From: an uncultured Phycisphaerales bacterium
GTDB lineage: Bacteria; Planctomycetota; Phycisphaerae; Tepidisphaerales; Tepidisphaeraceae
Assembly (NCBI GenBank): GCA_963755915.1
Contig: CAVWLP010000002.1
Coordinates: forward strand, 2,272,001-2,336,000
DNA length: 64,000 nucleotides
Direction: 5' to 3'
The notes under the pieces are model-generated. The model saw only the letters and a list, made by a program, of their open reading frames with translations. It was not told where the DNA came from and did not search any database. The position numbers were made by a program, and so were the translations under genes. Within the stretch, counting starts at the first letter, position 1. The number at the start of each line of letters is the position of its first letter. This document shows positions 24,293-46,719 of the stretch, piece after piece.

Positions 24293-24346
24293 GATTTTTC
24301 AAAAATAGGTACAAAACGTACACCTTTTGGACCTGTATATAGATGC
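24293..24346 (+). promoter_or_regulatory. Bipartite motif copy A, upstream of phage-like operon
   Basis: CAAAAATAGGTACAAAACGT-N9-GGACCTGTATATAGA; same blocks on minus strand at 61603-61656. Confidence 0.75.
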
Positions 24347-24395
24347 ACAGTATTAAACGCACGCAAGTGCGGCTGAAGTGATATCCACTCGCATC

Positions 24396-24456
24396 CGGCG
24401 GTGGGGCGGGAAGTCGCGGGCAGCCTCCTTCCCGCGATGCTCCGCCGCCGTTTTTT
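24396..24456 (+). terminator. Leader hairpin with U-tract (attenuator-like or small RNA)
   Basis: CGGCGGTGGGGC/GCTCCGCCGCCG outer stem, TCGCGGG/CCCGCGA inner stem, loop CAGCCTCCTT, T6. Confidence 0.6.
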
Positions 24457-24485
24457 GGGGTTTCAAATATTGAGAGGATTGGATT

Positions 24486-24863
24486 ATGTGCGCTCGATTT
24501 TTGAGGCTGGGCAGTGTTGCCGCCGCATTCGCGGTTGTGTCCCTGGTCGCGGCTTGCGCGGCGATGCAGGTTCCGAATAATCCGACGACCCAGGCGTTTG
24601 GGGAAGCAAGCGCGGTGACGGGGGCGATGGCTTCGACGGTGGCCCTGGCGGCTCCGGTTCCCTGGGGGCAGGTTGTGGCCAGTGCGCTGGGGGCGATCAG
24701 CGTGATCGCGGGGATCATTGCCCACAGCACGGTCTCGAAGAATAGCGCTCAGGAAGTGACCAGCGCCGTGGCGACGGGGATTCAGGCGGCGTCGCAGACG
24801 CTGGGAATTGGCGCGGGGCCCGCGGCGCCGTCGAACGCGGCAAACGCTCTGGCGGTGAAATAG
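24486..24863 (+). CDS. Small membrane/lipoprotein-like protein (holin/spanin-like position)
   Basis: Hydrophobic leader with VAAC lipobox-like motif, second hydrophobic helix; GAGAGGA RBS. Confidence 0.55.
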   Translation: MCARFLRLGSVAAAFAVVSLVAACAAMQVPNNPTTQAFGEASAVTGAMASTVALAAPVPWGQVVASALGAISVIAGIIAHSTVSKNSAQEVTSAVATGIQAASQTLGIGAGPAAPSNAANALAVK

Positions 24864-24903
24864 AACGTGCATGCTTTTGGGAAATAGCCGGAGAAAATAA
24901 TCC

Positions 24904-25169
24904 ATGCCGCCGCCCACCTTTCGATCTGGACACGGAATGGCTACGCCGATGGTTCGTGGGACGAATATCGGTTGCACGTCATTCAAAGCCTCAAGCGGAT
25001 TGACGACGGGCTGGAAAAACTGTGGCAGGCGATCTCGGATGTTAAGCGGGATGTGACGGCACTTAAGATCAAGGTGGCCGTATGGATCGCGGCGTTTGGA
25101 TTTGCGGGGGCGTCGATTCCCATTATTGTGGATGCGCTACTGCGATGGAAAGAAATCACGGCACAATAA
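24904..25169 (+). CDS. Coiled-coil + single TM protein (holin-like), probable frameshift near start
   Basis: WDEYRLHVIQSLKRIDDGLEKL..LKIKVAVWIAAFG. Confidence 0.5.
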
Positions 25170-25176
25170 TCAGGCG

Positions 25177-27165
25177 ATGGGGAAAACTATGAGGCATAGA
25201 CATCGGGGATTGAAAATTACGTTTGCCGCGCTCGTCGCGGTTGGTTTGCTGGCGACTGCGATTGCGCAGGTTTATCAGATTCAGACGAACGTAATGGATT
25301 CGAGTGGCCGGGTTATCGCGACGGCGACGACGCAGTTGAGCCTGGGGGCGCCGGCGACGAATCCGAGCGCGACCACGCAGGCGACGGGCGATGCCCAGCC
25401 GGCTGGAGCGACGGTCGCAGCGACGGCCGCTGGGCCGGGTTATCCGGCGATGGCTGGGAAGGTCTATCCTTCGGATGCATGGCTGAAGACGTTTTCATAT
25501 TTCAATGCGACGGCGGCGGATCCGGCCGGGTGGATCGACCTGGCGCCGCTGATTCCAGCCAATGCGTCCATCGTTTGCGCGAGGAGCAGCCCGCTTTATC
25601 AGGCAGGCTATTACACGGACGGCGCCAGCGCCTGGCAGGCGGCGATTGCCAATGGATCGAAAACCGTGCTGTTCCTCTACGGCGGGGGCGATACGTCCGT
25701 GACGATTAAGGATTCGCTGCATCCTAATGGCGTGACGCTGAACGCTTTTTCGCCGGCGATGGTGGACTTCAGCGTGCAGAGCACGACGGGAACCGCGGCG
25801 CGGCCGATTATCATCAGCAGCATCGATACCAGTGGAGTGTGGGATCAGTACAACGAATCGGAACGGCCGATCCTGGAAAACAATATTCCAATCGCCGGCA
25901 ACGCGACGCCGGGAGGGCCGGCGTGGGATTCGCCGATTCAGTATGTGATCTATGACCGGCTGCGGTTCTACAATCCCACGCGCGATCCCAGCAGCTCGCA
26001 ATTCAGCGGCAACTCGACAGCGCTCGGGGCGGGCAACACGGCGATTGGGATCGCGATAACTTCGTCCTGGGCGGAGGGAGTCAGCGGGTATTTCCTATTC
26101 GAAGACGTGAGGTCGAGCTTCTTCCATTCGATGTTCGATCTGGAGAATGACCAGCAGGGATCGCAGCTTAACACGATCATCATTCGGCGGTGTGTTTGCG
26201 ACAATAACTATGCGGGGCAAGTCGATTACGGCTCCTTTGATTCGGACATTCAGGACTTGCTCGTCGCCGATTCGACGTTCGATCTGAATGGGTGGAATCC
26301 GACGGTCACGGGAAAGACGGATGCCCAGGGGCGGGAGCATGATTGGTATGACGCGATCTGGCCGTCGTGGGACAGTCGCGATCCGCTGCACCGGTTCGTG
26401 AACGATATTTTCGCGCGACCGATGGCGGATGGGATCGAAGGCAATGCGCCCGACACGCTGATCGATCACCCGGTATTTGTCGCGTGCCCCATAGCCGGGT
26501 ACTGCGGTGCGGGAGGCGTGGGGGTGATTCAGAATTATCTGGTTGATGGCGGCAGCGGGGCGTTTGATGTGCTGGGGCCTGGCAGCGGTCTGTCGCTGAC
26601 CTGGCCGACGGTCAACGGGAATGGGCGTGGGTGGGGCGTCTATCTGGATTGTGCGATGACGGGGTCGCTGATCAATGGGATCACGCTTGGCAAGGCAGAC
26701 GCGAATGATGCGGCCATCAATCCGGGACAGGCAACCGGCGTGCATTGCGAAGATGCGCAGAAGGGATTGCCGAGCGAGGCCACGGCGGCAACTTTGACGA
26801 ATGTGCGCGTACATGATTGGTATGAGTGGAATGGCGGCGCGTCAAATCCTTCGGCAGCGAATGTCGTGAACCTGAGCAATGCGGGGCCTCCGCAGCCGAC
26901 GATTACGTATGGCAATTGCGTGTTGCCGGGCGTGAACGGGGTTACCGGCGTCAGCGCGGTCGAGCCGAATTACGTCGACGACACGCGCTGCGTGGCGACG
27001 TATGCAGCCGGGCTCGGTATCGGTGGTGTTGTAGATGCGCCGAGTTTTCTGACGGCGGCGGACGATAACTGGTCGGCCCCCAATGAGACGGCGTCTGGCT
27101 ACAACGTGAACCTGGCGGCGACGGCGGTGTTCAATTGGGTGAACGCGGGATTTCAAACGAGATGA
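25177..27165 (+). CDS. Secreted beta-helix-like protein
   Basis: Sec-type signal (RHRHRGLK-hydrophobic-AIA), Thr/Ala linker, beta-rich N/D/G body. Confidence 0.65.
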   Translation: MGKTMRHRHRGLKITFAALVAVGLLATAIAQVYQIQTNVMDSSGRVIATATTQLSLGAPATNPSATTQATGDAQPAGATVAATAAGPGYPAMAGKVYPSDAWLKTFSYFNATAADPAGWIDLAPLIPANASIVCARSSPLYQAGYYTDGASAWQAAIANGSKTVLFLYGGGDTSVTIKDSLHPNGVTLNAFSPAMVDFSVQSTTGTAARPIIISSIDTSGVWDQYNESERPILENNIPIAGNATPGGPAWDSPIQYVIYDRLRFYNPTRDPSSSQFSGNSTALGAGNTAIGIAITSSWAEGVSGYFLFEDVRSSFFHSMFDLENDQQGSQLNTIIIRRCVCDNNYAGQVDYGSFDSDIQDLLVADSTFDLNGWNPTVTGKTDAQGREHDWYDAIWPSWDSRDPLHRFVNDIFARPMADGIEGNAPDTLIDHPVFVACPIAGYCGAGGVGVIQNYLVDGGSGAFDVLGPGSGLSLTWPTVNGNGRGWGVYLDCAMTGSLINGITLGKADANDAAINPGQATGVHCEDAQKGLPSEATAATLTNVRVHDWYEWNGGASNPSAANVVNLSNAGPPQPTITYGNCVLPGVNGVTGVSAVEPNYVDDTRCVATYAAGLGIGGVVDAPSFLTAADDNWSAPNETASGYNVNLAATAVFNWVNAGFQTR

Positions 27166-27171: not shown

Positions 27172-28878
27172 ATGCAGGGACGATATATCGGACAATTTCT
27201 CCCGGCCTCGGGTGGGACGATGACGGGAACGCTCTCCATGGGCGGCAATGCCTTCAACGGCGTCACCACGATCGCCGACACGGGCGGCAATCAGCAGATC
27301 ACCCTCGATCCAGTTAACGGATCCGTGAATTTTCTGCTCGGGGATGGCTTGTGCACCGACTCATCCGAGGAGGGCGGGCTCTATGCGAAGACGGCTGGCG
27401 ATCCCATTTTGTACGGAAACTCGATCCAGCTCGATGCGACGAGTACGAGCATCCAGCTCAGCGCTGGCGGCACGATGTCGCTCACGGGGAAGACACTGAC
27501 TGCAACGGCGACGGTCGGCAACCTTCAATTAAGCGCGTCGTCAACGCTCAGCCTGTCGTGCGGCGGGGGATCGCTGGTCCTTTCAACGACGAACGCACTG
27601 TCTGGGGCGACCACGTTCAACAACAAGCTGGTGCACTCCACCTGGACGGCAACGCAGCTCATTTGCGTCGATGGGACAAATGGCGATGACACCAACGGCG
27701 ACGGGACGGCGCAGAATCCGTTGAAGACGCTCACGCAGGCGGTGAGCGTCGCCACCTCGGGCATGTGCATCTTCCTGGGGCCGGGGACCTACGCGGGCGG
27801 GGAAACGATTGCCTCGGGAGTGAGTCTAGTCGGATCGGGGCGCGGTGTTACCACGGTATATAAGAACTCGGCGGCGGTGCTTGCGCTCTCCAACTCGGCA
27901 TACCTGGCGAACCTGACGGTCTCCGGCGCGACACAGTCGGACAGCACGTTTGGTGTTCCGATATCGGTTGCCGGTGGGACGACCGGGTCGCTTTCGTGGG
28001 TGTTGGATAATGTCTCGCTGTACTGCCCCGCGGACGGCGTTCTGCTGAACGGCACCGGGGTTACGGGAGGCGCACTTACATTCTTCAACTGCCAGTTTTT
28101 CACCGGGTGCTGGTCGATTTTGGATTCGATCGGGCTTTCGATCGACGCGTACGATTGCGGCTGGACGTATTTTAATTTCACCAATCGCACGACGCCGCAG
28201 ATCGCGGCCGTCGTTTGCAACGCGAACAACTCGATCTTTCGGGCGTTCGGCGGAAATGTGACGGTGAATTATTCCGGAACCGCAACAAATTTCACCGCCA
28301 ACGCGGTGGTCATGGGGCCGGGATCAACGAATAGCAATGCGCAGTTTTATGGAACCAGCATTTACTTTAATTGTCCGAACATTCCCTCCACCGCGCTGTG
28401 CACGCCATTCAACCAGGATGGGACGGGGACATCGACGGTGATCGTGGGAAGGGGGTCGGCGTTCAACGGGACGTATCAAAACTCGACAACCAACGGGCTG
28501 TTGAGCGGTTACTTCCCGGCGATTGTGGTGCCGGATTCAAATTACGCACTTGGCGTTTCATCGATCGCGGTGACGCCGCCCTATTTCATGGATGATGTGC
28601 AGAATGAAGTCGCGGTCGATGCGGGAACGCTTGCGTCCAATACCCTGACGATCAATGCGCCTTCGCCCGGCGTGGCGAGCGACCGCGGCAAGGTGTCATT
28701 TCGCGTCAAGAATACCAACAGCGGATCGACGGCGATGACGCTGTCGCTCAATGCCGTCTATAACGTGGGCTCGACGACGGTGGGCACCATCGCGGCGGGA
28801 AAGCGGGCGTATCTGTCGTTTGTTTACGACACGGACAATTCGAAGTGGGACCTGACGGGCTACAGCAACGGATTATGA
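27172..28878 (+). CDS. Tail fibre/spike-like beta-helix protein
   Basis: FLPASGGTMTGTLSM fibre-type repeat; VDGTNGDDTNGDGTAQNPLKTLTQAV..IFLGPGTY pectin-lyase-like start; T/S/G/N rich. Confidence 0.65.
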   Translation: MQGRYIGQFLPASGGTMTGTLSMGGNAFNGVTTIADTGGNQQITLDPVNGSVNFLLGDGLCTDSSEEGGLYAKTAGDPILYGNSIQLDATSTSIQLSAGGTMSLTGKTLTATATVGNLQLSASSTLSLSCGGGSLVLSTTNALSGATTFNNKLVHSTWTATQLICVDGTNGDDTNGDGTAQNPLKTLTQAVSVATSGMCIFLGPGTYAGGETIASGVSLVGSGRGVTTVYKNSAAVLALSNSAYLANLTVSGATQSDSTFGVPISVAGGTTGSLSWVLDNVSLYCPADGVLLNGTGVTGGALTFFNCQFFTGCWSILDSIGLSIDAYDCGWTYFNFTNRTTPQIAAVVCNANNSIFRAFGGNVTVNYSGTATNFTANAVVMGPGSTNSNAQFYGTSIYFNCPNIPSTALCTPFNQDGTGTSTVIVGRGSAFNGTYQNSTTNGLLSGYFPAIVVPDSNYALGVSSIAVTPPYFMDDVQNEVAVDAGTLASNTLTINAPSPGVASDRGKVSFRVKNTNSGSTAMTLSLNAVYNVGSTTVGTIAAGKRAYLSFVYDTDNSKWDLTGYSNGL

Positions 28879-28881
28879 GCC

Positions 28882-29879
28882 ATGGCCAACGAAATCCAAC
28901 AGCAATACATTACGGGCAAGACCGTCTACGCAACGGTGACGCGGGCCGATGGCGAAGTCTGGCGGACCGACACCAGCGTGTTCGAAGCGCGAACTTCGTC
29001 GGACTGGGCCCACTACGCGATCACGACGAGCGAGGCGGGTGCGACCGGGTATTACGTCGGCAGCTTTCCGACCGGGATCACGGCGGCCGGAAGTTACAAC
29101 GTGCAGTTCTGGCGCAAGCGGGAAGCAGCCCGAGCGTGACGGATTTGAATAATGGGATGTTGGGAGGCGTGATTTACTGGACGGGGAGTGCCGAGGCGTT
29201 TGCGCTGGCGTCTTCGGCGGCGAATGCGGCCAACGCGGCGATGAACGGGCAGAATCTTGCCGCGAACATCGTGCAGGTTGCCGGGCAGAGCGCCAGCGCG
29301 GCGGGGGCGGTGACGTTTCCCGCGTCGATCGGCACGAGCACCTTCGCGGCGGGGGGGAACGTGAATGTGACACAGATCGCCGGGCAGACGGCAAGCGCGT
29401 CAAGTCCGGTGACATTTCCGGGCTCAATCGGCACGAGCACGCTGACGCAAACGCAGGTGACGGGGGGATCGTATGCATTGAGCACGAATTCGTCGGGGCA
29501 GGTAAATATCGTGCCGAACCAGGCGGTGAATGTGGCCCAGTGGAACGGCTCGGCGGTTTCGCTGAGCGGGGGATTGCCGAATGTCAGCGGCGGTGGCGGC
29601 GGAATCGATTCCGGGCCGATTCCGATCAACCAGGATACGGGCGGGACGGATAATCTCCGGTACGTGGACGAATCGGGAAACGGCGTGGGGGATGCGAATA
29701 TTTTGGTCTACCTGGCGACGGATTGGCCGGCCAATCCCAGCGCAGTCCAGGCGACGGCGATGACCGGGCCGGACGGAAGATGGCTGGCGCCGGCGTTTGT
29801 GCAGAGCGGGACGTATGTGGCGGTCTTCACGAAACTGGGGGTGGATGGGCCGGATGTTTCGGCGGCGTTTACGGTGTGA
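28882..29879 (+). CDS. Putative virion structural protein (frameshift ~29115) with internal repeat
   Basis: NIVQVAGQSASAAGAVTFPASIGTST / NVTQIAGQTASASSPVTFPGSIGTST. Confidence 0.6.
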
Positions 29880-29925: not shown

Positions 29926-30372
29926 ATGCCAGTGACGGCAACGCCAATTAATGACGGCTCGGCCGCGGGGCAGTATGCCGCGCAGAGCGATGTCGAGTCG
30001 CAGTTCGGGATCGACAACGTGCGGGTGTGGTCGCAGCTCGACAACACGGTTTGCACGGCAGACGTGGCGCGAATTCAGCAGGCGCTGAATTACGCGGATG
30101 GGATGATCATCTCGACGTTCGCGAATTTCGGGAATTACGTGACTCCGCTGGCGCCGGTTGGAACGGACGCGGTGCTGGTGACGCGATGGGCGGCGGTGAT
30201 CGCGGGGGCGTGGCTTTATCAGTCGCGCGGGTTTCGGGATGAGGATGTTGAGGGGGATCACCTGGCGAAGCTGCTGAAGGAAGTGGAGGGGGAGATGCTG
30301 CGGTACCGGGCGGGCGAGAAGCTGAACGCGGCGCGAAGATGGCCGGCAGCGACGGCGCCGGTGGGATATTGA
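29926..30372 (+). CDS. Mu gp36/DUF1320-like head-tail connector
   Basis: YAAQSDVESQFG, IQQALNYADGMI, YVTPL, WLYQSR. Confidence 0.7.
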   Translation: MPVTATPINDGSAAGQYAAQSDVESQFGIDNVRVWSQLDNTVCTADVARIQQALNYADGMIISTFANFGNYVTPLAPVGTDAVLVTRWAAVIAGAWLYQSRGFRDEDVEGDHLAKLLKEVEGEMLRYRAGEKLNAARRWPAATAPVGY

Positions 30373-30382: not shown

Positions 30383-30899
30383 ATGACGGTTGAAACGGTG
30401 GCAATCGAGAGCGTCAGCCCCGATCCGGCGAATGCGCAAGCACGGGCCGAGGAACCTCGACGCGATTGTGGCAAGCCTGCGGCGGTTTGGGCAGCAGAAG
30501 CCGATCGTTGTCGATTCCAAGGGCGTCGTGCGGGCGGGAAACGGGCAGCTCGAGGCGGCGAAGATGCTGGGTTGGACGCATATTCGCGTCGTGAAGTCGG
30601 ATTTGCCGGCGACGGAATTGACGGCGTTCGCCATCGCGGACAATCGGACGGCGGAACTTGCCGAATGGGATGACGACGTGCTGGCGGGCACGCTGGCGGA
30701 TCCGGAGATTGGAGATGTGGGATTCAACGGCGAGGAGATCAAGGGATTTTCTGCCGAAGACGAGCCTGACTTGAGTGCGGGCAGTGAGATTCAGGCGATG
30801 TTTGAGGTCGTGGTGGAATGCCGGGATGAGCAGGAGCAGAAGGTGCTTTACCAGCGGCTGACGTCCGAGGGATATTCATGCAGATTGTTCACGCTGTAG
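30383..30899 (+). CDS. ParB/Srx N-terminal domain protein (frameshift ~30436)
   Basis: PDPANA(R)KH, SLRRFGQQKPIVVD, AGNG, IADNRTAELAEWD. Confidence 0.85.
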
Positions 30900-32107
30900 T
30901 CGAGTGTCCCGTGCAGGAGAGCTTCCGGGCGAGGCAGGTCGCCGGGATGTTTGATCTGCCGGTGGATTCCGGAATGCGGTCCTCGTTTTGCGTGAAGGTG
31001 CCGACGCTGGATGAGCATTGAAGCATCGGAGCGATCGTGGGGCCGAGCGGGTCTGGAAAGACAACGATCGCGAAGCGGGCGTTCGGGGCGTGGATGCCGG
31101 AAGAGTGGGATTGGCCGGGAAATCAGAGCATTCTTGAGGGTTTCCCCGCGGAGATGGAAATTCGCCGGATTACGCAGTTACTCGGCAGCGTAGGGTTCAG
31201 CTCGCCGCCGGCGTGGATGCGGCCGTTTCATCTGTTGAGCAATGGGGAACAGTTTCGCGTGACGCTCGCGCGCACGCTGGCGGAGTTGCCTGAGCTGGCG
31301 GTTGTGGATGAGTTCACCAGCGTGGTGGACCGGACGGTGGCGAAGATCGGATCGGCGGCGGTGAGCCGGGCGGTGCGCCGAAGCGGCAGAAGATTCGTCG
31401 CGGTGAGCTGTCATTACGACATTCTTCCCTGGCTGGAGCCGGACTGGGTCGTGGACATGGGAAATGCCGAACCGCAGCCGGAGGCGAGGAGCGGTACGCC
31501 GCATCGATCGGACGCCGTTCGCCCGGAGGGCGGACCACCGTTGCCAGATCCCGAATCAAATGAAGAAGCACGGGGGTGGCTTCGGCGACCGGACATTCGG
31601 TTGGAGATCGTGCGGTGCGATACGTCGGCGTGGAGAATATTCAGCCGTCATCACTATTTGAGCGGCAGGTTGCATTCATCGGCGTTTTGTTTTTTAGCGT
31701 TGATTGAAGATCAGCCGGCGGCGTTTGTGGCGGCGCTGCCGTTTCCGCATGCGACGCATCCTGGCTGGCGGGAGCATCGCTGTGTCTGCCTGCCAGATTA
31801 CCAGGGAGTGGGGATAGGCAATGCCGTCAGCGAATTTGTCGCGTCGCTGTTCGTCGCGACGGGGCGGCCATACACAAGCGTGACCAGCCATCCGGCGATG
31901 ATGCATCATCGTTCGCGCTCGCCGCTGTGGCGCGTGCGGCGGGGGCCGTCGCGGGTGGTGCGAAATAAGAATCGCGGCGGTGTCGCGACTGGAATGGACA
32001 GATCGATCAGCAGCCGGCGGATGACCGCGAGCTTTAAATTTGTGGGATGCGCCAGGTTTGAGGCGGCGCAGGCCTTTGACCTGCTGCGAAACGTGGAGGT
32101 TTTATGA
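30878..32107 (+). CDS. ABC-type ATPase fused to GNAT/Mom-like acetyltransferase; in-frame TGA at 31019
   Basis: GPSGSGKTT, LSNGEQFR, VVDEFTSVVDR; W..FSRHHYL, VCLPDYQGVGIG. Confidence 0.8.
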
Positions 32108-32406
32108 GATCGGAGCTTTCCGACGAACTCGTGCGGGGTCTGGCGGTTGAGGGGGCTACGGATGAGGACATCTGCGAAATCTACGGCCTGACGCGTGCTC
32201 AGCTTCTGAGCAGCTTTGGGCATGTATTGAAGGAGGCACGGGCGCACAGGAGGGTGTTGTTGCGGAAACTGCAGAATAAGGAGGCACAGAAGGGAAATAC
32301 GACGATTTTGGCTCTACTGGGGAAAAATGAGCTGGGGCAAGACCGACGAGAAAGAGCCGGCGACGATCATTGGCCCGAACCACAACTGGGCGAGAAGGTG
32401 GGTTGA
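32104..32406 (+). CDS. Terminase small subunit-like
   Basis: N-terminal HTH (GATDEDICEIYG), GNTTILALLGKNELGQ; precedes large terminase. Confidence 0.7.
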   Translation: MRSELSDELVRGLAVEGATDEDICEIYGLTRAQLLSSFGHVLKEARAHRRVLLRKLQNKEAQKGNTTILALLGKNELGQDRRERAGDDHWPEPQLGEKVG

Positions 32407-33657: not shown

Positions 33658-33662
33658 TCGAT

Positions 33663-36996: not shown

Positions 36997-37030
36997 CCTC
37001 AACAGGCAAATTATTTTCAAGGATCTCAAC

Positions 37031-38151: not shown

Positions 38152-38167
38152 CTCGCGTGCTCTTCCC

Positions 38168-38658: not shown

Positions 38659-38686
38659 GCAGATTTGAAATTGAGGAGCTTTAGTC

Positions 38687-39217: not shown

Positions 39218-39634
39218 ATGGCCGCCTCGGTATTTCATTCCGGTTCATTCGGCACCGCGACGCTCGGATCAAACGAGTTGTCGGTCACCGGCTGGCAGGT
39301 CCAGCCGACCGCGCAGCTTGTGGAATTCAAGAACAGCAAGAGCGGTGGTTACGTTCTTCGCGAAGCCACGTTCAAGGATTGCAGCGTGGCGATCGACGTC
39401 GATTTCGACTTTGGCAACAACCCGTTTCAAACGCCTTTTTCAATTCAGCCGGGCACGACGCTGAGCAACGTGATCCTCTGCCTGCACCAGACCGCCTCGG
39501 GCGCGCTGGATGGATTGCAGTGGACGTTTTCGTCGCTGGTGGTCGATTCAACGCCGCAGAAATTGCAGGTTGACGGGCGGATCACCACGCGATTCACCGC
39601 CAAGGGGAACGGCAGCTACACACCTGCATCGTAG
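39218..39634 (+). CDS. Tail tube protein-like
   Basis: FHSGSFG N-terminus, TRFTAKGNG C-terminus, 138 aa, CAGGAG RBS. Confidence 0.65.
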   Translation: MAASVFHSGSFGTATLGSNELSVTGWQVQPTAQLVEFKNSKSGGYVLREATFKDCSVAIDVDFDFGNNPFQTPFSIQPGTTLSNVILCLHQTASGALDGLQWTFSSLVVDSTPQKLQVDGRITTRFTAKGNGSYTPAS

Positions 39635-39657: not shown

Positions 39658-40179
39658 ATGAGCGATCTGAAAGACCTGGTTGGTCTGGGCGACAACGCCA
39701 CATTTCCCGGGCACACGCTTTCGCCGCCGCGGCTGATTGAGTTCGCCGAGGCGGAAGAGGAAGCGGCAGCGCAATACCTTCGGGGTATCGCGAAGGCGTC
39801 GGCGGGACTGCCGCCAGTGGCCCGCGACCTGCTTCATCAGCGGGCGGTGGACAACCTGCGGTCGCATCCGTTCAGCTACGGCTCGGCGGCGTTTGATCAG
39901 TGGGCGCTATCAATGTCGGCGGCGCCGTTCCTCGCTTGGCTGCTTCTTCGCATCAAACATCCGAAGATGTCGCTCAGCGAGGCGTCGCAGCTTCTGTGCG
40001 AAGGTGAATACGCGGCCAAGGTGGGAGCGGTCTGGTCGATGTGGGGCTACAAGCCCGCAAAAAAAGCCGCGCCGGCGGTGGAAGCCGCGCCTCCGCCGGC
40101 GAAGGCAGAGGCCGGGCAATCGACTGGCGGGGAATCTTCGCGCGGCTCACGTCCGCCAGGCCAGGGGGATGCGGTTTGA
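39658..40179 (+). CDS. Tail assembly chaperone (G-like)
   Basis: Follows tail tube; contains A AAA AAA at 40059-40065. Confidence 0.6.
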   Translation: MSDLKDLVGLGDNATFPGHTLSPPRLIEFAEAEEEAAAQYLRGIAKASAGLPPVARDLLHQRAVDNLRSHPFSYGSAAFDQWALSMSAAPFLAWLLLRIKHPKMSLSEASQLLCEGEYAAKVGAVWSMWGYKPAKKAAPAVEAAPPPAKAEAGQSTGGESSRGSRPPGQGDAV

Positions 40180-40469
40180 GCTATCAGCAGGCGGCGGAGC
40201 TGACGTGGGCGCAGTTGATGCATGCAATGGGGGTTTCGCCGAATGTGGTGAGTGACGAAGAGATTGGAGCGAAGATTCGAGCGGGGCAGGACGAAATATT
40301 TCGGCTATCCGACGGCGGACCTCACGCCGCTCCTGGACTAGCTGAGCCGCCGGAAATACACCAAACTCGCCCAACGCTAGGACCAGATACTAGACGCAGC
40401 TGCCACAAATTGCCCGGTTTGCCGGCATCCAGACTGAGACCCAGCACAGGAAGTTGCAAAATCGGATAA
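40059..40469 (+). CDS. -1 frame extension of tail chaperone (T-like)
   Basis: Open -1 frame: IDWRGIFARLT..GLSYQQAAELTWAQL; 3' part probably disrupted. Confidence 0.5.
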   Translation, partial: KKSRAGGGSRASAGEGRGRAIDWRGIFARLTSARPGGCGLSYQQAAELTWAQLMHAMGVSPNVVSDEEIGAKIRAGQDEIFRLSDGGPHAAPGLAEPPEIHQTRPTLGPDTRRSCHKLPGLPASRLRPSTGSCKIG

Positions 40470-40526
40470 ATCTCGACAGATTTGGTTACCGATCAGTATA
40501 GTTGGGCGACCATTCGCCATGAGCAA

Positions 40527-41303
40527 ATGAGCGTAACGAAGCCAAAGTTAGTCCAGACGGTTTGTGAAATCCGGTACGAACGAGGATACCGTTACCTCGA
40601 TCGGTGCGGGGAGGCTATGCTTATTTTGCAGGAACTTTTGCCTTCTGAGACGCAAAAGACCTGGATGCCTGACGAGATAGCACCATCTGGAGCCCGACTA
40701 AAATGCCCAGATCTTGACACGATGGTTTACTTCGATAGTGCCCGGCTCGTTGTAGACCAAAATCCGGCGAGCGGAACCGACGAGTTTCCAAGGATATGCC
40801 AGTATGTGTGGTCTACCATCAAGGGCCGATTTGATCTGCGTGACATTGTGCGTGTCGGATACAGAAGTTTTTATATGGTTGCAACCGATTCAATTGATGA
40901 AGCCGAAGCCCTTTCCGTGAAGATGTCCCCGTTTGGCGAATGGGTAAGGAGTTTGAACGAGGAAGCGACCGCGTGCGAAGCAACGTGCGTTTATGAGAAT
41001 GCGGAACGATCGGCCGGATATCGGCTGTCATTGCGGCCGTCGTTTAGAGTTGAGGCTCCGTTGCAAATCGACCCAAGATTGCAAACGCCGCCCCGTCTTC
41101 TCGCGCAGGGACAACGTGAGGCCTTACAGTCGCAAAGACAGCGACGTGCTCAGCGCGAGAAGGAACCGCTTGCCGGCCTACTAATCGACATCGATCACTA
41201 CACAATTCGACCAGAAACATTGGATGCCGACGGATTCATCGATGCCTCCCGTAAAAGATCAGAAGAGATTGTATCCGAGCTGACTAAACCAGGTGCCAAA
41301 TGA
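40527..41303 (+). CDS. TIGR04255-like protein
   Basis: PKLVQTVCEIRY, VRVGYR, LLIDIDHY; lower GC. Confidence 0.65.
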   Translation: MSVTKPKLVQTVCEIRYERGYRYLDRCGEAMLILQELLPSETQKTWMPDEIAPSGARLKCPDLDTMVYFDSARLVVDQNPASGTDEFPRICQYVWSTIKGRFDLRDIVRVGYRSFYMVATDSIDEAEALSVKMSPFGEWVRSLNEEATACEATCVYENAERSAGYRLSLRPSFRVEAPLQIDPRLQTPPRLLAQGQREALQSQRQRRAQREKEPLAGLLIDIDHYTIRPETLDADGFIDASRKRSEEIVSELTKPGAK

Positions 41304-41887
41304 GCAGGATAGCTAATGTGCAACCGTTTGTGTCCGGTTCTTCCGACCAATTTCAGGCTGGAGGCGTTAGTACCTCCGAGTTAAGGCCCCCCCCAACGAA
41401 GCCAGGATCGGCTTCAAGGACAGGAAAACTGGAATCCGGCACTGGTGAGGGCATTGGAAGCATCCACTTTGAACCCACCGTAAATCGCATACGTGGCGCG
41501 GAGAAGTTGGACCCGCGGCTGCTGGAGAAATCGGTGCAAACGCTCGATGGAATTGAGCGTCTTCCAGCGGAGGACATGAGCTTGGCGATCGAGTCGCTCC
41601 GGTATGTCGTGTGTGAGTTGTGGCTGAGCGCAGCCCGGGCTAGCCAGTCCCACAGATCAGTTCTCGCGATTGTTGAATCCCTAGTTTCGTCCGTAGAAAC
41701 TGTAACATCGAGTCAGGCGGCGGCGCTTCGTGGCGCCTTTAACGATCTGCGACAACCTGTGATTACCGAGCAGCACCTTGACGTGATCCGTTCCCAATTC
41801 ATTGACGAAGGCTATAATCCGATGGCGATTCTTAGTGGCTTGGAGAGTGATCCCGATGGAGACGGAAACGAAGCCGGAGGTAGCTAA
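41300..41887 (+). CDS. Hypothetical protein (disordered N-terminus, helical C-terminus)
   Basis: ATGA overlap with upstream gene, overlaps downstream gene. Confidence 0.6.
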   Translation: MSRIANVQPFVSGSSDQFQAGGVSTSELRPPPTKPGSASRTGKLESGTGEGIGSIHFEPTVNRIRGAEKLDPRLLEKSVQTLDGIERLPAEDMSLAIESLRYVVCELWLSAARASQSHRSVLAIVESLVSSVETVTSSQAAALRGAFNDLRQPVITEQHLDVIRSQFIDEGYNPMAILSGLESDPDGDGNEAGGS

Positions 41888-42722
41888 AAGCAGCCCTGCC
41901 GAATTGCCCCTCACCGTTCATATTGACACATCGCTGCAAATTGAACAGCAAAAGGCTGAAGTCAAGGCTGGGCCGGTTCGTAGAGCCCTTTCGCAATACA
42001 AGTTTACATCGACTTCCTCCTACGCGAGGAAAGAGTTTAAGCGAGCATGGCTCAAGGATTTGGGGCTATGCTACAAGGCGACTCGAGATGCAAAACAAAT
42101 CGGGGACGTTTTCGAAAATATCCGGAAGAGCACCTATCACGCAGCGGCGAAACGGCGGCTCGACCGTTGCATCAGCGCGGCTAATGCATTTCTTTCTGCG
42201 AACCCGAGCCTTCCGAGCGACGTCGCCGTAATTCGACTAAGAAGCCATCTCGGCGAGTCCATTCTCGGCGGCTTTACAAAATGGGGCAGAAGTGTAACTC
42301 ACGAATATGATGGTACCCGGTGTTTCAGGGCGACGGAGCGACCCACAAGGGCGTCCGACGGATCTATTGATGTCAGCGTCCGGCAATGTAAGCCATCCAG
42401 AATTCAGTGCTCGGTGCACGAATTCTTCAGACAGCACGAAGCGGTTTTTTCGCGAATAAAAGCGGAAATTCAATCGGCAGAGTCGAGCGCTTCGGAGGAG
42501 CTCAAAGGCACTGCAATGATGATCGACAAAGCAATTCGCGATTCGGAAATTCTCTGTGACGACAAAAACTGCAGCTCAATGAGCGACGCCATCATTGCGG
42601 TGGACGGCCTCAATTCGAGTCACTTTGCGGCCAACAACGACAAAGAATGGCGTACGCTTGCGAGGGTTTTGGGAAAGACATTGGTGAATCCTGTGTCGGG
42701 GGAGACTTTCGAGACGGGTTGA
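41856..42722 (+). CDS. PIN-like domain protein, Cys-rich
   Basis: VHIDTS, EFKR, SDAIIA, NNDKEW acidic pattern. Confidence 0.55.
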   Translation: METETKPEVAKSSPAELPLTVHIDTSLQIEQQKAEVKAGPVRRALSQYKFTSTSSYARKEFKRAWLKDLGLCYKATRDAKQIGDVFENIRKSTYHAAAKRRLDRCISAANAFLSANPSLPSDVAVIRLRSHLGESILGGFTKWGRSVTHEYDGTRCFRATERPTRASDGSIDVSVRQCKPSRIQCSVHEFFRQHEAVFSRIKAEIQSAESSASEELKGTAMMIDKAIRDSEILCDDKNCSSMSDAIIAVDGLNSSHFAANNDKEWRTLARVLGKTLVNPVSGETFETG

Positions 42723-42807
42723 TCTCGGCCGAAGGGGGCGAATCCGATTACTGCAGGTCTCAAGGAAGTGCTTCTAAGCTTTCTCATTTTAGATATTCGA
42801 GGAAAAT

Positions 42808-43830
42808 GTGCAGCCCTATCCCCGAGCCAACATCAGCGAAGGCGATTCCGTCGCTATCTCCGTCGATCTTTACAACCGGATCGTCTCCGACATCGAGCGC
42901 CTCGATCGCCTGGCGGTCATGCCGCCGCTCTATCTCACCAACGGCGCCAGCGGGACGACGATCGGATTCCAATCAAGCCCCGGCGAGCTCGTCCTGGTGG
43001 CGATCATCGGCGCGGAGACGGGCGGAGGGCGCTATCAAGGCTCGATCCTTTATGGAAACAGCACAGGCAGCACGACCACCAACTTTCAGCTCCAGCCCCA
43101 AGTCAACCAATCGGCGACGGATGGTCCCATACCGATTTCGCAGTCGAACGGATCCCTCGTCAACAATGCGCTGGTTATCAACCTCAATGAGCCATACGTG
43201 AACGACACGCATTTGCTCTGGGGAAACGTCTCAGAAATGTATTACGCCATCGGGCGGGTTATGGGGTTTACGTCTGGAAGCAATCCGCGAACGATCGTTT
43301 ACATTGAGAATTGGCCGCTTTACCCGGTCATTGCAAAGATAACCGGCGTATATGAAGCGAGTTACGGCGGCGTCTACTACGGGCGAATCGTTCAGGGCCA
43401 ATTCGCCAGCGGGAGCAGTTTTGGATATGGATCGCTGCTTAGCAATTTAAATTCCGCATTTTTGCCGAGCGTGGACAACTGCTGGATAACTAACAACTGG
43501 GAACAGACTTACAGTGCAAATCAGCGGAACAGTTTGCCCATAGATTCGTACGTTTGGGGCCTGATGGCCGGTTTTCCGCAGTATTCGGCGATTACCAGCG
43601 GAAATAGCAGTGCAACAAATGTTTGGTTTCAGGTCTATACGTGGTTTCCGCCACAGAGCGCGACCCTGGTTCACCAGGTGCAGAATATCGTCACAACTCA
43701 GAGTGCCGATTCGACTTACAGCATAAATGAACAGACCATGCTCAACAATCTGAAGACCGATGTCACCAATCTGGAGGCGGCACTGAGCAATCTTTACGCG
43801 AATCTGAAAACCGCGGGGTACTCGTTATAG
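42808..43830 (+). CDS. Putative distal tail/receptor-binding protein
   Basis: Beta-rich Y/W/N/S body, C-terminal coiled coil; resumes phage-like operon. Confidence 0.5.
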   Translation: MQPYPRANISEGDSVAISVDLYNRIVSDIERLDRLAVMPPLYLTNGASGTTIGFQSSPGELVLVAIIGAETGGGRYQGSILYGNSTGSTTTNFQLQPQVNQSATDGPIPISQSNGSLVNNALVINLNEPYVNDTHLLWGNVSEMYYAIGRVMGFTSGSNPRTIVYIENWPLYPVIAKITGVYEASYGGVYYGRIVQGQFASGSSFGYGSLLSNLNSAFLPSVDNCWITNNWEQTYSANQRNSLPIDSYVWGLMAGFPQYSAITSGNSSATNVWFQVYTWFPPQSATLVHQVQNIVTTQSADSTYSINEQTMLNNLKTDVTNLEAALSNLYANLKTAGYSL

Positions 43831-43942: not shown

Positions 43943-44671
43943 ATGCGTAGTGGATTCAGAAAGGTAGCCCTGTTTGCCGCGTGTGCGGCTATCTCGGGCT
44001 TGGGTGTGTTGCGGGCCTCATCGGCCGCGACGATTGTTATTGATGGTGGAACCTCGGCCGTTGTCGATGGGTGGAACATCACCCCTCAAACGGGCGTGAC
44101 GTTGTTCGTCACACCGAGTTCTTCCAACACTCCTCTTGCCATCGAAAAGGCGGCGTTTTTCACGGCGCCAAACCAGGGACTTTTAATCTCGTTTCAACCG
44201 GAGTCGGACTCAACCGCAGCCAGCGTCATCGACTTTGACTCGGAGACTATCCAAAATAGCTCCGGGACAGGCTGGAGCGGATTCCAGTTCCTGTTGAGCA
44301 GTGGAGCGACGTTTCCGTCCGTGAGCAGCACGTTTGTGCCGCCCAGCGGATTCTTCACCACTGTGAACCTCAACCCCGCGGGCAACACGTTGACGTATGC
44401 CGGCGGATCGCAGGCTTCGGGCACCACGTCGTCTTGGGGCAGCGGGATTGTCGATTATGACAATACCGGCTCCCCGATCGACAGCAGCCCGGATAACCTG
44501 ATCATCGACGCCTCGGGCGGCGGTTTCGATCTCAAGGAAATCGCCTCGCCGGGCGGTGGAAGCGTTGTTCCGCTTCCCAGCGCGGCGTGGCAGAGCATGG
44601 CCGGCCTCGCCGGTCTCGCTTTATTCGGAGTCGCCCGAAAGCTGAGCAAGCGCTCGAGTTCGATCGCCTGA
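43943..44671 (+). CDS. PEP-CTERM/VPLPA-CTERM sorting-domain surface protein
   Basis: Signal peptide; VVPLPSAAW-hydrophobic-RKLSKR; GGGAGG RBS. Confidence 0.85.
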   Translation: MRSGFRKVALFAACAAISGLGVLRASSAATIVIDGGTSAVVDGWNITPQTGVTLFVTPSSSNTPLAIEKAAFFTAPNQGLLISFQPESDSTAASVIDFDSETIQNSSGTGWSGFQFLLSSGATFPSVSSTFVPPSGFFTTVNLNPAGNTLTYAGGSQASGTTSSWGSGIVDYDNTGSPIDSSPDNLIIDASGGGFDLKEIASPGGGSVVPLPSAAWQSMAGLAGLALFGVARKLSKRSSSIA

Positions 44672-44705: not shown

Positions 44706-44760
44706 GCGGGCGCACGATGAGCTGATCCAAATCAGCAAATCGTGCGGCCCGCCCCCTTTT
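44706..44760. terminator. Hairpin terminator between convergent genes
   Basis: GCGGGCGCACGAT..GCTGAT/ATCAGC..ATCGTGCGGCCCGC then T-run. Confidence 0.65.
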
Positions 44761-45485
44761 TACTGCTCTTCCTCCTCCACAAGGATCTGCTTAGAAACCG
44801 CCCGGGCTATCCGCACCACTTCGTTGCTGTGTACGCGGCGATCCTCCGGATATTTCCTGCGATTCCAGCATCTGAGGATATAGAAGTCGGGGTCTGACTC
44901 ATCCCGGAACACCCGTTTGAATGTCGTGCTTCCGTCGGCGAACGCCAGGTAATAAGATTTGCCGGGCAAAATTCCTTCCCGCTCGACCGCATCGAAACTG
45001 AACACAACGATTTCGCCGTTTTTCCACTTGGGATGCTGGCAGTCTCCATCCACCGGCGCGGCAAAGGCGCGGCGATCGGAAGAGGCCGCCAGGCGATTCG
45101 CGTCAGGATATTCGGAAAACTTGTCGACGCGTTTATTCGCGGCCACGCCAATGTGAAATTCGGGCAGAATCCGCGCGGGCCGAACCCGGCGAAGGTCAAG
45201 TCCGAAGGGAAACGCGGCCGGCCGCGAAACAGTTTCGACTTCGCTGATTGGGGAATTTTGGGAAACGCAAAAGCGCTCTTTGAACTCCTCCAGGTTCAAT
45301 CCCAGCGCGGAAGCGAGCTTGGGCAGACGCTTGGCCAAAATGCCGGCGACTTCGTGGCGCTCTATTCGGCTGATGGTTTCGTCTGACACTCCGCCAATTG
45401 CTTCGCCAAGCTGTTTCTGGGTTATGGCGAGCTGGTCCCTGGCGACAGCCAGGCGTTTCCCGAAGATGTGAGCCACTCTTGCCAC
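44760..45485 (-). CDS. CI/LexA-like repressor (XRE HTH + S24-like domain)
   Basis: FGKRL..ITQKQLG..TISRIER; VDGDCQHP..NGEIV; TFKRV; AAGGAGG RBS. Confidence 0.85.
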   Translation of the reverse strand: MARVAHIFGKRLAVARDQLAITQKQLGEAIGGVSDETISRIERHEVAGILAKRLPKLASALGLNLEEFKERFCVSQNSPISEVETVSRPAAFPFGLDLRRVRPARILPEFHIGVAANKRVDKFSEYPDANRLAASSDRRAFAAPVDGDCQHPKWKNGEIVVFSFDAVEREGILPGKSYYLAFADGSTTFKRVFRDESDPDFYILRCWNRRKYPEDRRVHSNEVVRIARAVSKQILVEEEEQ

Positions 45486-45542
45486 CCGGACCTCCTTATA
45501 TCCGAACCAAACCGGACACCAAACATTTTACGAACTTTTCGC

Positions 45543-45570
45543 TTGCGTACTCCAAAGTTTGGAGTATAAT
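45543..45570 (+). promoter_or_regulatory. Sigma70 promoter with a palindromic operator filling the spacer
   Basis: TTGCGT-16nt-TATAAT; TACTCCAAA-G-TTTGGAGTA at 45548-45566. Confidence 0.8.
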
Positions 45571-45594
45571 TGGAAGAAAGTCAAGGCGAATTAG

Positions 45595-45981
45595 GTGGAA
45601 AACGGAATTTCAATTCGACGCGTGGCATTGGGCGGCTTGGCCCTGGCGTCGCCGCCGGGCCTCCCTCCGGGAGTGAGGCAGAGCGACTGCGACGGGCCCG
45701 CGGACGCTCTCGACAGCCTCAGCGGCGCACAGCTTTGGAACCGGTGCAATTTCGCCCAGCAGGAGGCAATTTGCTCGCGGTTTGTCAGCGAGCGCAGCGA
45801 CGTGCTCCGCGACGCCCTGCTGGACGATCGGATTTCGCTTGCAGCGGGCGGCGCCGGACGGCTGGGAGCGGCGGTCTGGCCCCAATGGATTGTCTTTCGC
45901 GACGACCGCCTGCGCGAAATGGTTTGCCGCGGCGAATTCGGTCGTGCGGGTGAATCCCGAATTCGGTCTACAGGAGAATAG
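45595..45981 (+). CDS. Hypothetical protein, first gene after the repressed promoter
   Basis: Directly downstream of promoter, abuts next ORF; frame uncertain. Confidence 0.4.
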   Translation: MENGISIRRVALGGLALASPPGLPPGVRQSDCDGPADALDSLSGAQLWNRCNFAQQEAICSRFVSERSDVLRDALLDDRISLAAGGAGRLGAAVWPQWIVFRDDRLREMVCRGEFGRAGESRIRSTGE

Positions 45982-45983
45982 AA

Positions 45984-46719
45984 ATGCCAAAAGTGATTGT
46001 AAATAATCCAAATATAGTTTTAGAATCTTCATCGGGAGAAACCGGGTTTGCCGGGGCGGCGCTCCGGTCGGCAGCGATCGACGAAGGCGATATGGCGGCG
46101 GTTCGTCTGCTGCGGCAATTCAGGCAGGAAATCGAGGAACTCGCCTGTAGCGCGACCTGGGCGGACGACTGTCTTTTCCGCGGCGCCCGCTACGCGCCGG
46201 ATTTCCGATGTGCCTGCGCGAACTGCCGCAAATTTTTCCCCACCCGGCTGCATCCCAGGCCGTTCCGGGAATCGAAATACTCGACCGATTGCCAGGTTGA
46301 GACCGACGAAGACCCGGAATTCGCCGAGGAATTTGCCCGGCTGCGCAACGATCGCCCGCGGTTTGGCAGCGTTTTCGCCCGCCACCCGCGCATCTCAATG
46401 GAAAAGAACCAGATTCACGCGGGAGATTGACGACGCGGGAGGAAGATTATATCGATCCTTTCGGTGACGGAAAAGCAGCATGAGGTTCTGTGGCTGCGGT
46501 ACAACCAGCGCAAATCGACCCGTGAGATCGCCGTCCAACTCGGCATTCAACGCCGCGCTGTGATGGCCCGGCTTCGCCGTGCGCAAGCGGCTGACGACAA
46601 TGCAAAGCGATTGCAGCCGCACGGAAAAACCTTCCGCTCAGCCGGAAAAACCGCGGATGGTCAGCGCCTCGCAGACCCTAGTAAAAGGCCAGAGCGGTTG
46701 GAGCATGGAGGATCTTTGA
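45984..46719 (+). CDS. Cys-motif + sigma-70 region 4 HTH protein (in-frame TGA at 46428, probable frameshift ~46640)
   Basis: CACANC; TEKQHEVLWLRY..KSTREIAVQLGIQRRAVMARLRRA in the same frame as 45984. Confidence 0.6.

Follow-up and report, generated by a model that had tools for sequence, protein, structure and literature searches.

A probably endogenized, vertically inherited particle locus of siphovirus origin in the chromosomes of Tepidisphaeraceae

Introduction

PBSX of Bacillus is a chromosomal locus for a non-propagating phage-like particle that is conserved among related species and regulated by an Xre-type repressor together with a small positive factor of sigma-like type. Capsid-forming satellites (cf-PICI) encode an integrase and replication proteins, move from site to site and use the tails of helpers, and RcGTA, a gene transfer agent (GTA), has a capsid and a portal of HK97-type families. 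The definition given by Kogay et al. (PMC9662315) names six features of a GTA: caudoviricete-derived particles, packaging of mostly random host DNA, an endogenized genome, a head too small for the whole locus, mostly vertical inheritance with co-diversification, and delivery of the packaged DNA to cells; the established GTAs described in this source are a handful, found in alphaproteobacteria, a deltaproteobacterium, a spirochaete and a methanogen. Here we analyse a phage-type gene cluster at ~24.3–46.9 kb of a 64,000-nt stretch of contig CAVWLP010000002.1 (assembly GCA_963755915.1; hereafter the window, to which coordinates refer unless another locus is named), from an uncultured bacterium of the family Tepidisphaeraceae. 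On balance, the cluster is probably an endogenized, vertically inherited, siphovirus-derived particle locus of this family, a viriform of the GTA or PBSX kind rather than an ordinary prophage; that it is domesticated and selectively maintained we consider very likely.

Three of the six GTA features can be recognized from sequence, namely caudovirus-derived parts, endogenization and vertical co-diversification. Like RcGTA (Rhodogtaviriformidae), the locus combines head and siphovirus-type tail genes in a cluster of roughly 15–22 kb without integration or replication genes, is endogenized and vertically inherited, and has been partly lost in some lineages. A sigma-like gene is the candidate counterpart of the sigma-factor-like RcGTA activator GafA, the C-terminus of which resembles sigma factors (PMC6363796). 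Unlike RcGTA, the Tepidisphaeraceae locus has a lambda-E capsid (PF03864) and a Mu-type portal (PF06074), in keeping with an independent origin, retains a CI/LexA-like repressor alongside, and is known here from its genes. With PBSX it shares the character of a non-propagating chromosomal particle locus and the combination of a repressor with a sigma-like factor, but the PBSX tail is contractile, whereas here a tube occurs without a sheath, and the two have no sequence relationship. Capsid-forming satellites likewise have a compact head, packaging and connector module with a repressor; unlike them, the present locus has no integrase or replication genes, occupies one site and has its own tail genes. 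Full-text literature searches yielded, by title or abstract, no report of a GTA in Planctomycetes or Phycisphaerae, and a search on Tepidisphaeraceae and prophages gave, by the same measure, nothing on this locus.

Results

Chromosomal site and endogenization

Genomes are labelled G000 (the window's own), G001 (its nearest relative) and by further G numbers (related genomes). Gene order is the same in each of the seven relatives compared first, and wherever their contigs extend beyond the cluster the flanking host genes are the same: to the left, trpA, a sugar isomerase, MoaE, endonuclease III, a radical-SAM gene and DUF2203; to the right, the PilM operon, MiaB, Dtd and a glycosyltransferase. 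These flanks recur in G005, G008 and G153, and the contigs of G010 and G002 carry cluster genes only; in G136 the other end of the cluster abuts DUF2203 and the radical-SAM gene, which implies an inversion. The capsid protein of G020, a genome of another genus, finds full-length copies with 86–90% identity in 10 of the 12 genomes of the window's genus, and further full-length copies in genera g3, g9 and g83 (g3 is represented by G014, of which only the match was used). Synteny, which a preliminary description of this DNA had proposed as a check, is thus conserved across one genus and at least two further genera. That description had also assigned the DNA to a probable Phycisphaerae genome, correctly, as loci recovered with the capsid alignment come from metagenome-assembled genomes (MAGs) of Tepidisphaeraceae, Tepidisphaerales, Phycisphaerales or Planctomycetota.

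Family scans of the open reading frames (ORFs) of the window, G020 and G005 revealed no recombinase, transposase, replication or primase family, and the tyrosine integrase family (PF00589) is absent from the window, its nearest member lying 58 kb upstream of it. None of the 20 listed direct-repeat families (of 25 found) brackets the cluster as att-type repeats would, and a tRNA scan of the window returned only the transfer-messenger RNA (tmRNA) at 60.9 kb. The earlier remark that integrase, transposase, replication gene, endolysin and att repeats are missing is therefore borne out by the family scans and the repeat search, and the integration or excision functions, replication genes and att sites of an ordinary temperate prophage were not found. 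With the same site occupied in related species and genera and deletion variants remaining in place, the locus reads as fully endogenized.

Divergence in step with the host

In comparisons with G020, synonymous divergence (dS) spanned 0.66–3.7 in the cluster and 0.98–2.6 in the host flanks, several comparisons being saturated in each. The corresponding ratios of nonsynonymous to synonymous divergence (dN/dS) were lowest for the capsid (0.06–0.13) and the 235-aa head protein (0.10–0.15), followed by the portal (0.11–0.18), repressor (0.12–0.19), tube (0.13–0.24) and TerL (0.16–0.29), against 0.36–0.49 for the spikes and 0.11–0.47 for the host flanks; values for the adaptor and the 164-aa protein were 0.11–0.18 and 0.14–0.24. 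Between G000 and G001, DNA identity was 90.8–92.9% in all five aligned blocks, within and outside the cluster, with pooled dS of 0.34 for head genes, 0.28 for other cluster genes and 0.28 for host genes, and pooled dN/dS of 0.08, 0.11 and 0.12, respectively. The low dN/dS anticipated for a captured machine was accordingly observed, at 0.06–0.29 for head genes with host-like dS.

Maximum likelihood trees of nine taxa were built from seven cluster proteins and from seven right-flank host proteins. Both recovered ((G000,G001),(G003,G008)) and a group of G005, G007, G012 and G006, with G020 outside, and the branches of the cluster tree were about half as long as those of the host tree. The suggested comparison with the host tree therefore held for the main splits and failed locally, on G006 and G012. 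Vertical inheritance with co-diversification was found within genera g1, g3, g9 and g83, whereas sites differ more widely in the family. Together, these data show that the locus has diverged in step with its host, under purifying selection at least as strong as that on neighbouring host genes.

Frameshifts in head genes are assembly errors

The window's genome is a long-read assembly of three contigs (6.6 Mb, marker completeness 81%), and the raw window shows broken frames in TerL, portal, protease, the 235-aa protein, the capsid (at four places) and the ~170-aa gene that follows it. For the head part of the cluster (32300–38700), to which the read check applies, contigs of four short-read soil runs (X1–X4) were aligned. 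They were 95–100% identical to the window, 42 of 64 at 99% or more, and differed from it by a single base, gained or missing, at nine breaks, located in TerL (32903), portal (34675), protease (36067), the 235-aa gene (36445), capsid (37059, 37253, 37968 and 38042) and the ~170-aa gene (38306). Eight of the nine frame corrections were supported by two or three runs and that at 37059 by X1 alone; the runs may include the genome's own sample, and their support represents what reads say rather than an independent population. With the nine corrections applied, every gene forms one full-length frame: TerL (443 aa), the protease (374 aa) and the 235-aa protein are complete, the portal can be aligned over 442 aa and the capsid is 85% identical to that of G020 over 370 aa. 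TerL, portal and capsid are intact in the short-read genomes (TerL of G020 has 444 aa), except for the G005 portal, which was recovered in part.

The head-gene frameshifts are assembly errors. Pseudogenization of the head genes, which the preliminary description had named as a possible refutation once the sequence was polished, was rejected: all nine breaks are contradicted by short-read contigs, which restore the frames of the apparent pseudogenes, and trpB is broken too. Signs of indel error elsewhere in the window are the split of this host gene (16582–17824, − strand) by a single-base indel near 17217, and a HAD hydrolase ORF (9048–9916, − strand) whose match to its family profile is confined to the C-terminal two thirds. 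In long-read MAGs, a check against reads is needed before frameshifted 'pseudogenes' are taken as decay.

A head and packaging module within a co-directional cluster

Every credible gene of the cluster lies on the + strand except one, the repressor. Families were assigned with Pfam and PHROGs scans of the window ORFs and of intact orthologues from the short-read genome G020 (Table 1). By these assignments the cluster is predicted to encode a full DNA-packaging head, with a small terminase candidate (TerS), the large terminase (TerL), a Mu-type portal, a protease and a lambda-E-type capsid; together with the adaptor and the tube, the last four of these identify, by sequence, caudoviricete-derived proteins of a caudovirion-like particle. 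Spike or fibre, gp36, ParB, TerL, portal, protease, capsid, tube and chaperone genes, all on the + strand, had been read from the letters of the sequence, and family and structure matches agree.

Table 1. Features of the particle cluster and the evidence for their assignment
Feature	Coordinates	Strand	Basis
AT-rich promoter-like module	24276..24355	+	~140 nt upstream of first cluster ORF; dispersed host-type element
125-aa protein, lipoprotein-type signal and hydrophobic segments, holin/spanin-like	24486..24863	+	translation, by eye
65-aa coiled-coil protein, C-terminal hydrophobic segment	24972..25169	+	translation, by eye
689-aa spike/fibre-like protein, N-terminal signal/anchor	25096..27165	+	homology to G020 560-aa protein
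568-aa beta-helix tail-spike-like protein	27172..28878	+	DUF1565 E 4.8e-7; phrog_4577 'tail protein' E 7e-4
344-aa fibre-like protein	28845..29879	+	conserved C-terminal domain, last ~90 aa 72% identical to G020
Head-tail adaptor, Mu gp36-like	29926..30372	+	PF07030 E 3.4e-5; phrog_195 E 5.5e-8
ParB-N-like protein	30390..30899	+	phrog_620 E 6e-28
ABC-type ATPase and GNAT acetyltransferase fusion	30887..32107	+	phage family phrog_11143, E 2.4e-87; G020 5.6e-104
Small terminase candidate (TerS), 100 aa	32104..32406	+	position: immediately upstream of and overlapping TerL
Large terminase (TerL)	32327..33657	+	phrog_2 E 1e-18 and phrog_10250 E 6e-15, on its two pieces
Portal, Mu type	33651..34980	+	PF06074 E 8.7e-8; G020 1e-14
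Prohead protease, helical scaffold-like C-terminal half	34986..36110	+	phrog_976 E 1.2e-5; intact G020 orthologue 1.5e-8
235-aa head-module protein, decoration or scaffold candidate	36173..36882	+	80-86% identity across genera; unassigned
Dispersed palindromic host repeat, ~115 nt	36881..36995		inserted between 235-aa gene and capsid gene
Major capsid protein, lambda gpE type	37029..38145	+	G020 orthologue PF03864 E 3e-11
~170-aa head-completion/neck candidate	38120..38658	+	position; orthologues 50-75% identical
164-aa neck/tail candidate	38687..39181	+	phrog_22694 (unknown function) E 2e-11
Tail tube protein, siphovirus type	39218..39634	+	ESM Atlas model match
Tail assembly chaperone pair, G/GT-like	39658..40469	+	ORF 39658-40179 and -1 frame open over 40008-40469
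Foreign low-GC cassette	40292..42799	+	ORFs 40482-41303, 41300-41887, 41802-42722; occupies tape-measure-like/Dit-like spot of relatives
340-aa tail-tip/fibre-like protein, C-terminal coiled coil	42808..43830	+	49-54% identity to G020 across relatives
Secreted host-type protein, signal peptide and VPLP PEP-CTERM-like tail	43943..44671	+	translation
CI/LexA-like repressor, HTH_3 and S24-like C-terminal domain	44760..45485	-	HTH_3 E 2e-8; phrog_4 E 6e-15
148-aa Cys-rich small protein, conserved partner of sigma-like gene	45984..46430	+	orthology
Small sigma-70 region-4-like protein, candidate activator	46440..46859	+	Sigma70_r4_2 E 2e-8

Within the head module, TerL is single copy in the window's genome, and the capsid is 86–90% identical across four genera; a PF03864 search of the raw assembly did not detect the window's own frame-broken capsid gene. 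Orthologues of the TerS candidate show 39–52% identity in distant relatives and 94% in G001, with no Pfam or PHROGs match for the window ORF or its G020 orthologue. No Pfam or PHROGs match was obtained for the 235-aa protein either, in the window or in G020, nor any PDB match. Searching the PDB with alignment profiles of the tube, Dit-like, 340-aa, 235-aa, protease and capsid proteins gave no significant match. The PF07030 score of the adaptor (24.4 bits) falls just below the cut-off of 24.7, and the G005 copy of the 164-aa protein carries a stop. In G003, G020 and G052, an extra DUF5131 (phage Gp37/Gp68-type) gene, a 209-aa gene and a second ParB lie between the adaptor and the ATPase/GNAT gene (L028:735–1481, L015:8041–8790 on the − strand, and L043:16947–17705), a block that the window is without.

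At the left end, the 125-aa protein has orthologues with 50–56% identity in G007, G006, G012 and G004 and 96% in G001; neither it nor the 65-aa protein has a match (for the latter, a significant one) in Pfam, PHROGs, NCBIfam or PADLOC. The 689-aa spike-like protein is fast-evolving (28–43% identity between relatives) and aligns with the G020 560-aa protein at 29% identity over 563 aa, the latter showing a weak Beta_helix match (E 2.7e-4). The 344-aa fibre gene contains a 99-nt tandem duplication at 29274–29440. Towards the right end, the 340-aa protein matches phrog_4366 ('head fibre') over its C-terminal 30 aa (E 9e-4), with weak Gp5_OB leads in the Atlas. The signal-peptide and VPLP-CTERM proteins noticed earlier inside the cluster are indeed there, as one protein, with orthologues of 45–52% identity in G007, G012, G003 and G006 and of 90% over 123 aa in G001; none was found in G020. 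Base composition, described earlier as host-like, is so in the first 16 kb of the cluster (GC ~0.58–0.63, as in the flanks) and departs from this in the cassette at 40292–42799 (GC 0.53–0.55).

A predicted non-contractile tail and a foreign cassette

The tail tube assignment rests on an orthologue model that matches Phage_tail_2 and TP901-1-type tube clusters of the ESM Atlas with TM 0.77–0.87 and a feature score of 0.97; the tube alignment has 88% mean column identity over 11 orthologues. In the chaperone pair, the slippery heptamer A AAA AAG stands in frame at 40060, the same site (last base G or T) occurs in eight of nine genomes, and the −1 frame downstream of it is open, with a conserved peptide. 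The following segment has zero DNA homology to G001, against 91–93% identity on either side. Its three ORFs have no match in Pfam, PHROGs, NCBIfam or PADLOC (defence systems), and the first is a member of a hypothetical protein family of ~258 aa that is widespread in Planctomycetota, with 111 matches outside its own cluster. A sigma-70-like promoter match of the cassette's own lies at 40473–40502.

Relatives have at this spot a helix-rich, tape-measure-like protein of 225–502 aa with large internal length changes between homologues, followed by a Dit-like protein of 269–275 aa. The tape-measure label rests on position, helical composition and length polymorphism: A/E/Q/K/R/D/L make up 55–66% of the seven candidates of at least 225 aa and 42–50% of two short ones, with no match in Pfam, PHROGs, NCBIfam or PADLOC. 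For the Dit-like protein, a model from nine sequences (pLDDT 48.9) was too poor for use, and one from 43 sequences reached pLDDT 87.8. Its N-domain aligned with baseplate-hub, Dit and tube-fold proteins, among them T5 Dit, the 80alpha and Mu baseplates and the lambda tip, at Z 5.0–6.2 (VIA-align), all below the tool's confidence bar of 8; Foldseek gave no match at E ≤ 0.001, the best non-significant rows being the TP901-1 and JBD30 baseplates.

The Dit-like profile has no match at any place in the window's genome, which makes the loss of two tail-assembly genes, the tape-measure-like and the Dit-like one, very probable there. Since a foreign cassette replaces both, the window's copy may give tail-defective particles; the rest of the cluster shows no visible relaxation of selection despite the lost genes. 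The earlier observation that a tape measure is lacking is thus true of this window, where 40292–42799 is foreign, and does not extend to relatives. The tail itself is predicted to be non-contractile, from the tube and the G/GT-type chaperone, to which relatives add the tape-measure-like and Dit-like proteins.

Regulatory genes, promoter-like module and host repeat

Distant orthologues of the repressor match Peptidase_S24. In all eight clade sequences the nucleophile motif is GDC (GNC in G005), Cys replacing the Ser of GDSM, with an invariant Lys, whereas the G050 and G052 repressors retain GDSM. The repressor accordingly departs from the LexA/CI pattern of S24 self-cleavage (Ser nucleophile in GDSM plus Lys base) in its nucleophile, and self-cleavage of the Cys variant may or may not persist. 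The sigma-like gene has a 100-aa orthologue in G020 (Sigma70_r4, E 5e-10), also adjoins the distant G052 cluster, and gives a weak NCBIfam match to 'positive control sigma-like factor' (E 0.0034). Its 148-aa Cys-rich partner is 51–64% identical in distant relatives and 96% identical over 78 aa in G001, with no family match. Directly after the sigma-like gene of G052, before polysaccharide genes, lies a NusG-like gene (L044:10472–11032); in the window, a NusG paralogue followed by a sugar transferase is found at 62146–63708.

The promoter-like module comprises ~50–70 nt with a GTAC...GTAC palindrome and then TATATAG. It has 56 blastn-short matches in the genome, each 20–150 nt upstream of a different ORF, with 90–100% identity over 42–69 nt among the matches listed, and a partial second copy in the window at 61629–61653 (− strand). 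Groups of copies also have a common downstream leader sequence, and the module resembles a dispersed, possibly mobile, promoter cassette. It appears to be a recent host-type addition and not a conserved control element, since G001 alone among relatives has it at the cluster start. An Rfam scan of 23900–25200, upstream of the cluster, gave no match, and neither sigma-70 promoter-like sites (7 vs 7.4 in shuffles) nor terminator-like sites (18 vs 19.0) were enriched.

The ~115-nt repeat has 85 blastn matches genome-wide, in both orientations; at its site in the window, short-read contigs of other runs differ, and one X2 contig joins 36825 to 37060 differently. The preliminary description had pointed to a host-type repeat inside the cluster, which is this one, and to an upstream motif common to another host locus, which recurs at 61.6 kb and in at least 56 places of the genome. 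Host control, which that description named as a trait of known GTAs, fares less well here: it rests on the promoter-like module of one species pair, and the locus still carries a phage-type repressor and a sigma-like regulator of its own.

Related clusters and phages

In G050, G052, G059 and G142 (capsid identity 33–58%) the head module lies at other chromosomal sites. G050 and G052 have the same S24-repressor arrangement, with the sigma-like gene too in G052, and show no recognizable tube genes beside the head module and no adjacent integrase.

IMG/VR tools call cluster fragments viral. The contigs of that database with 86–90% capsid identity are fragments of 6–22 kb with the same gene order, that is, pieces of these chromosomes. 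A second set, of 11–72 kb, has capsid identities of 35–41%; these phages resemble the chromosomal locus in the block of TerL, portal, protease, 235-aa protein, capsid, gp36 adaptor and often ParB, and differ from it in that gp36 comes right after the capsid gene, whereas it lies upstream of ParB in all chromosomal Tepidisphaeraceae copies examined. This common rearrangement fits a single origin of the chromosomal form; alternatively, the gp36-upstream order may also be present in some phage lineage. The distant relative behind L087 measures 44.3 kb, carries direct terminal repeats and has a completeness rating of 100%, and the INPHARED isolate phages gave one match, with 26% identity over 36% of the query. 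Complete phages, proposed earlier as evidence against capture if close, are thus found only among distant relatives, with capsids at most 41% identical.

Other features of the window

A WXG100-family small protein (3119–3391) lies near an FtsK/SpoIIIE-type ATPase (6628–7959), a pairing reminiscent of type VII secretion. The window also holds a Fic-domain protein (135–1532) and repeat pairs of 87 and 82 nt at 4583–4962. The stretch 11000–16000 has lower GC (0.55–0.57), may be another foreign insertion, and includes an IrrE/M78-peptidase-like fragment (12566–12856) and an ECF-type sigma factor (14901–15509). Part of the tmRNA gene (60880–61262, − strand) coincides with the end of an ORF (60371–60919) from the '23S rRNA intervening sequence protein' family.

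Discussion

Synteny, trees, dN/dS and intact frames support the earlier proposal of a captured packaging machine rather than a prophage; its patchy distribution and its losses do not. Several observations weigh against an endogenized, vertically inherited particle locus. The capsid occurs in 30 of 141 genomes and 15 of 76 genera of the family, and, in a class-wide sample of 401 genomes, in 17 of 63 of its own family and in 2 of 60, 1 of 45 and 1 of 16 genomes of three other families, with none found in the other twenty families. The non-patchy distribution expected earlier is thus not what was found, and two congeners as well as the window have lost parts. G009 (92% complete) is without the block from the adaptor to the first neck gene and retains one spike gene, the neck-to-tail genes and the regulators; G011 is without the portal-to-repressor block and retains adaptor to TerL and the sigma-like pair; both remnants sit at the same chromosomal site. 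The ATPase/GNAT gene of the window has an in-frame TGA at 31019–31021 where G001 has TGG, outside the read-checked stretch; it reflects a genuine nonsense mutation or else an erroneous base. These deletions, the window's missing tail genes and the possible nonsense codon indicate that hosts can do without the locus and that its loss recurs. Between G000 and G001, indels that change the frame number 32 in 18.3 kb of the cluster and 13 in 17.5 kb of host genes, a density ~2.3 times higher in the cluster, so that real decay was a live possibility before the read check.

Further points of this kind concern inheritance and the particle itself. The host data reject the pairing of G006 with G012 (approximately unbiased (AU) test, p 3e-5) and the cluster data weakly reject the host clade (AU p 0.044); because both genomes are error-prone long-read assemblies, artefact and local recombination are indistinguishable here. 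The locus retains a phage-type repressor, no endolysin family was matched by any ORF scanned in the window, G020 or G005, and the absence of any Dit-like match in the window's genome may leave its tail incomplete. A related complete phage holds 44 kb, and a head of that size would fit the ~22-kb locus, unlike those of accepted GTAs. Finally, a look-up of RNA data sets listed none that contains the locus.

As to what has been selected, we tentatively propose gene transfer, at slightly less than even chances. The strong constraint on TerL, portal and capsid suggests that DNA-filled heads matter, which favours transfer over a tailocin-like role. An unlikely alternative, though one to be taken seriously, is that the same domesticated locus is kept, in the manner of PBSX, for killing relatives or for another tail-mediated function, with packaged DNA as a by-product. 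All the evidence for domestication serves this explanation equally, and the combination of an HTH_3 repressor with a Sigma70_r4 protein resembles the Xre-type repressor and sigma-like factor of PBSX. The spikes and tail tip change fastest (28–43% identity) and the tail-tip segment has been swapped between the closest relatives, as expected under arms-race targeting. However, the head and packaging genes are the most constrained (dN/dS 0.06–0.29), which is hard to explain if the head is irrelevant, as tailocins lose heads, and the tail is non-contractile; sequence by itself cannot separate killing from transfer. A role in PBSX-like killing, or in pac-initiated in-situ packaging of neighbouring DNA, is conceivable.

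It is very improbable that the locus is an ordinary defective prophage remnant, integrated once, now decaying, and retained so far through chance or its linkage with a useful passenger. The different large deletions in G009 and G011, the cassette and possible nonsense codon in the window, the patchy family distribution and the passenger PEP-CTERM protein inside the locus would all suit such a remnant. Yet dS is near saturation between genera, a span over which neutral decay would have destroyed the reading frames, and capsid, portal, TerL, tube and repressor are intact at dN/dS of 0.06–0.29; the ratio stays at 0.08–0.11 even on the short G000–G001 branch, and the frameshifts that suggested decay are assembly errors. 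Little credence can be given to a still-mobile element, a small temperate phage or cf-PICI-like satellite that re-enters the same site through an unrecognized or host recombinase and tracks its hosts: the head, packaging and connector genes with a repressor recall capsid-forming satellites, related clusters occupy other sites in G050, G052, G059 and G142 (in the first two without recognizable tube genes) and IMG/VR tools call fragments viral, but the window scans found no integrase, replication or primase gene and no att repeats, in the closest pair the locus matches its flanks in dS and DNA identity, its tree agrees with that of the host in the main splits, the G009 and G011 deletion variants remain at the site with no clean empty site, and the locus has its own tail genes, unlike satellites.

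For the domesticated particle locus serving gene transfer, the following course can be envisaged. A signal would inactivate the repressor, DNA damage being likely if the S24-like domain still self-cleaves, and the sigma-like protein would turn on the long rightward operon. The terminase would load the heads with DNA that comes mostly from outside the locus, tails would join, and release would proceed via the small membrane proteins and a putative lysin. The fast-evolving spikes would then bind surface glycans of related cells, and the DNA would be injected. It is possible, though somewhat doubtful, that the locus represents a sixth independently domesticated GTA lineage, the first in Planctomycetota. 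As parts of that same proposal, and with the same reserve, its switch would consist of the Cys-for-Ser LexA-like repressor and the sigma-like activator, the tail tip would be an exchangeable cassette, and packaging would take place in situ on the chromosome, at random or from a pac site of the locus into its neighbours, as in lateral transduction.

If this is true, the GTA phenomenon would extend to a phylum with poorly known routes of gene exchange, here the soil and peat Phycisphaerae, and virus-prediction tools would have a reason for repeatedly calling these chromosomal fragments viral. The locus would also provide an unrelated structural lineage, with a lambda-E capsid and a Mu portal, for comparing how phages become host organelles.

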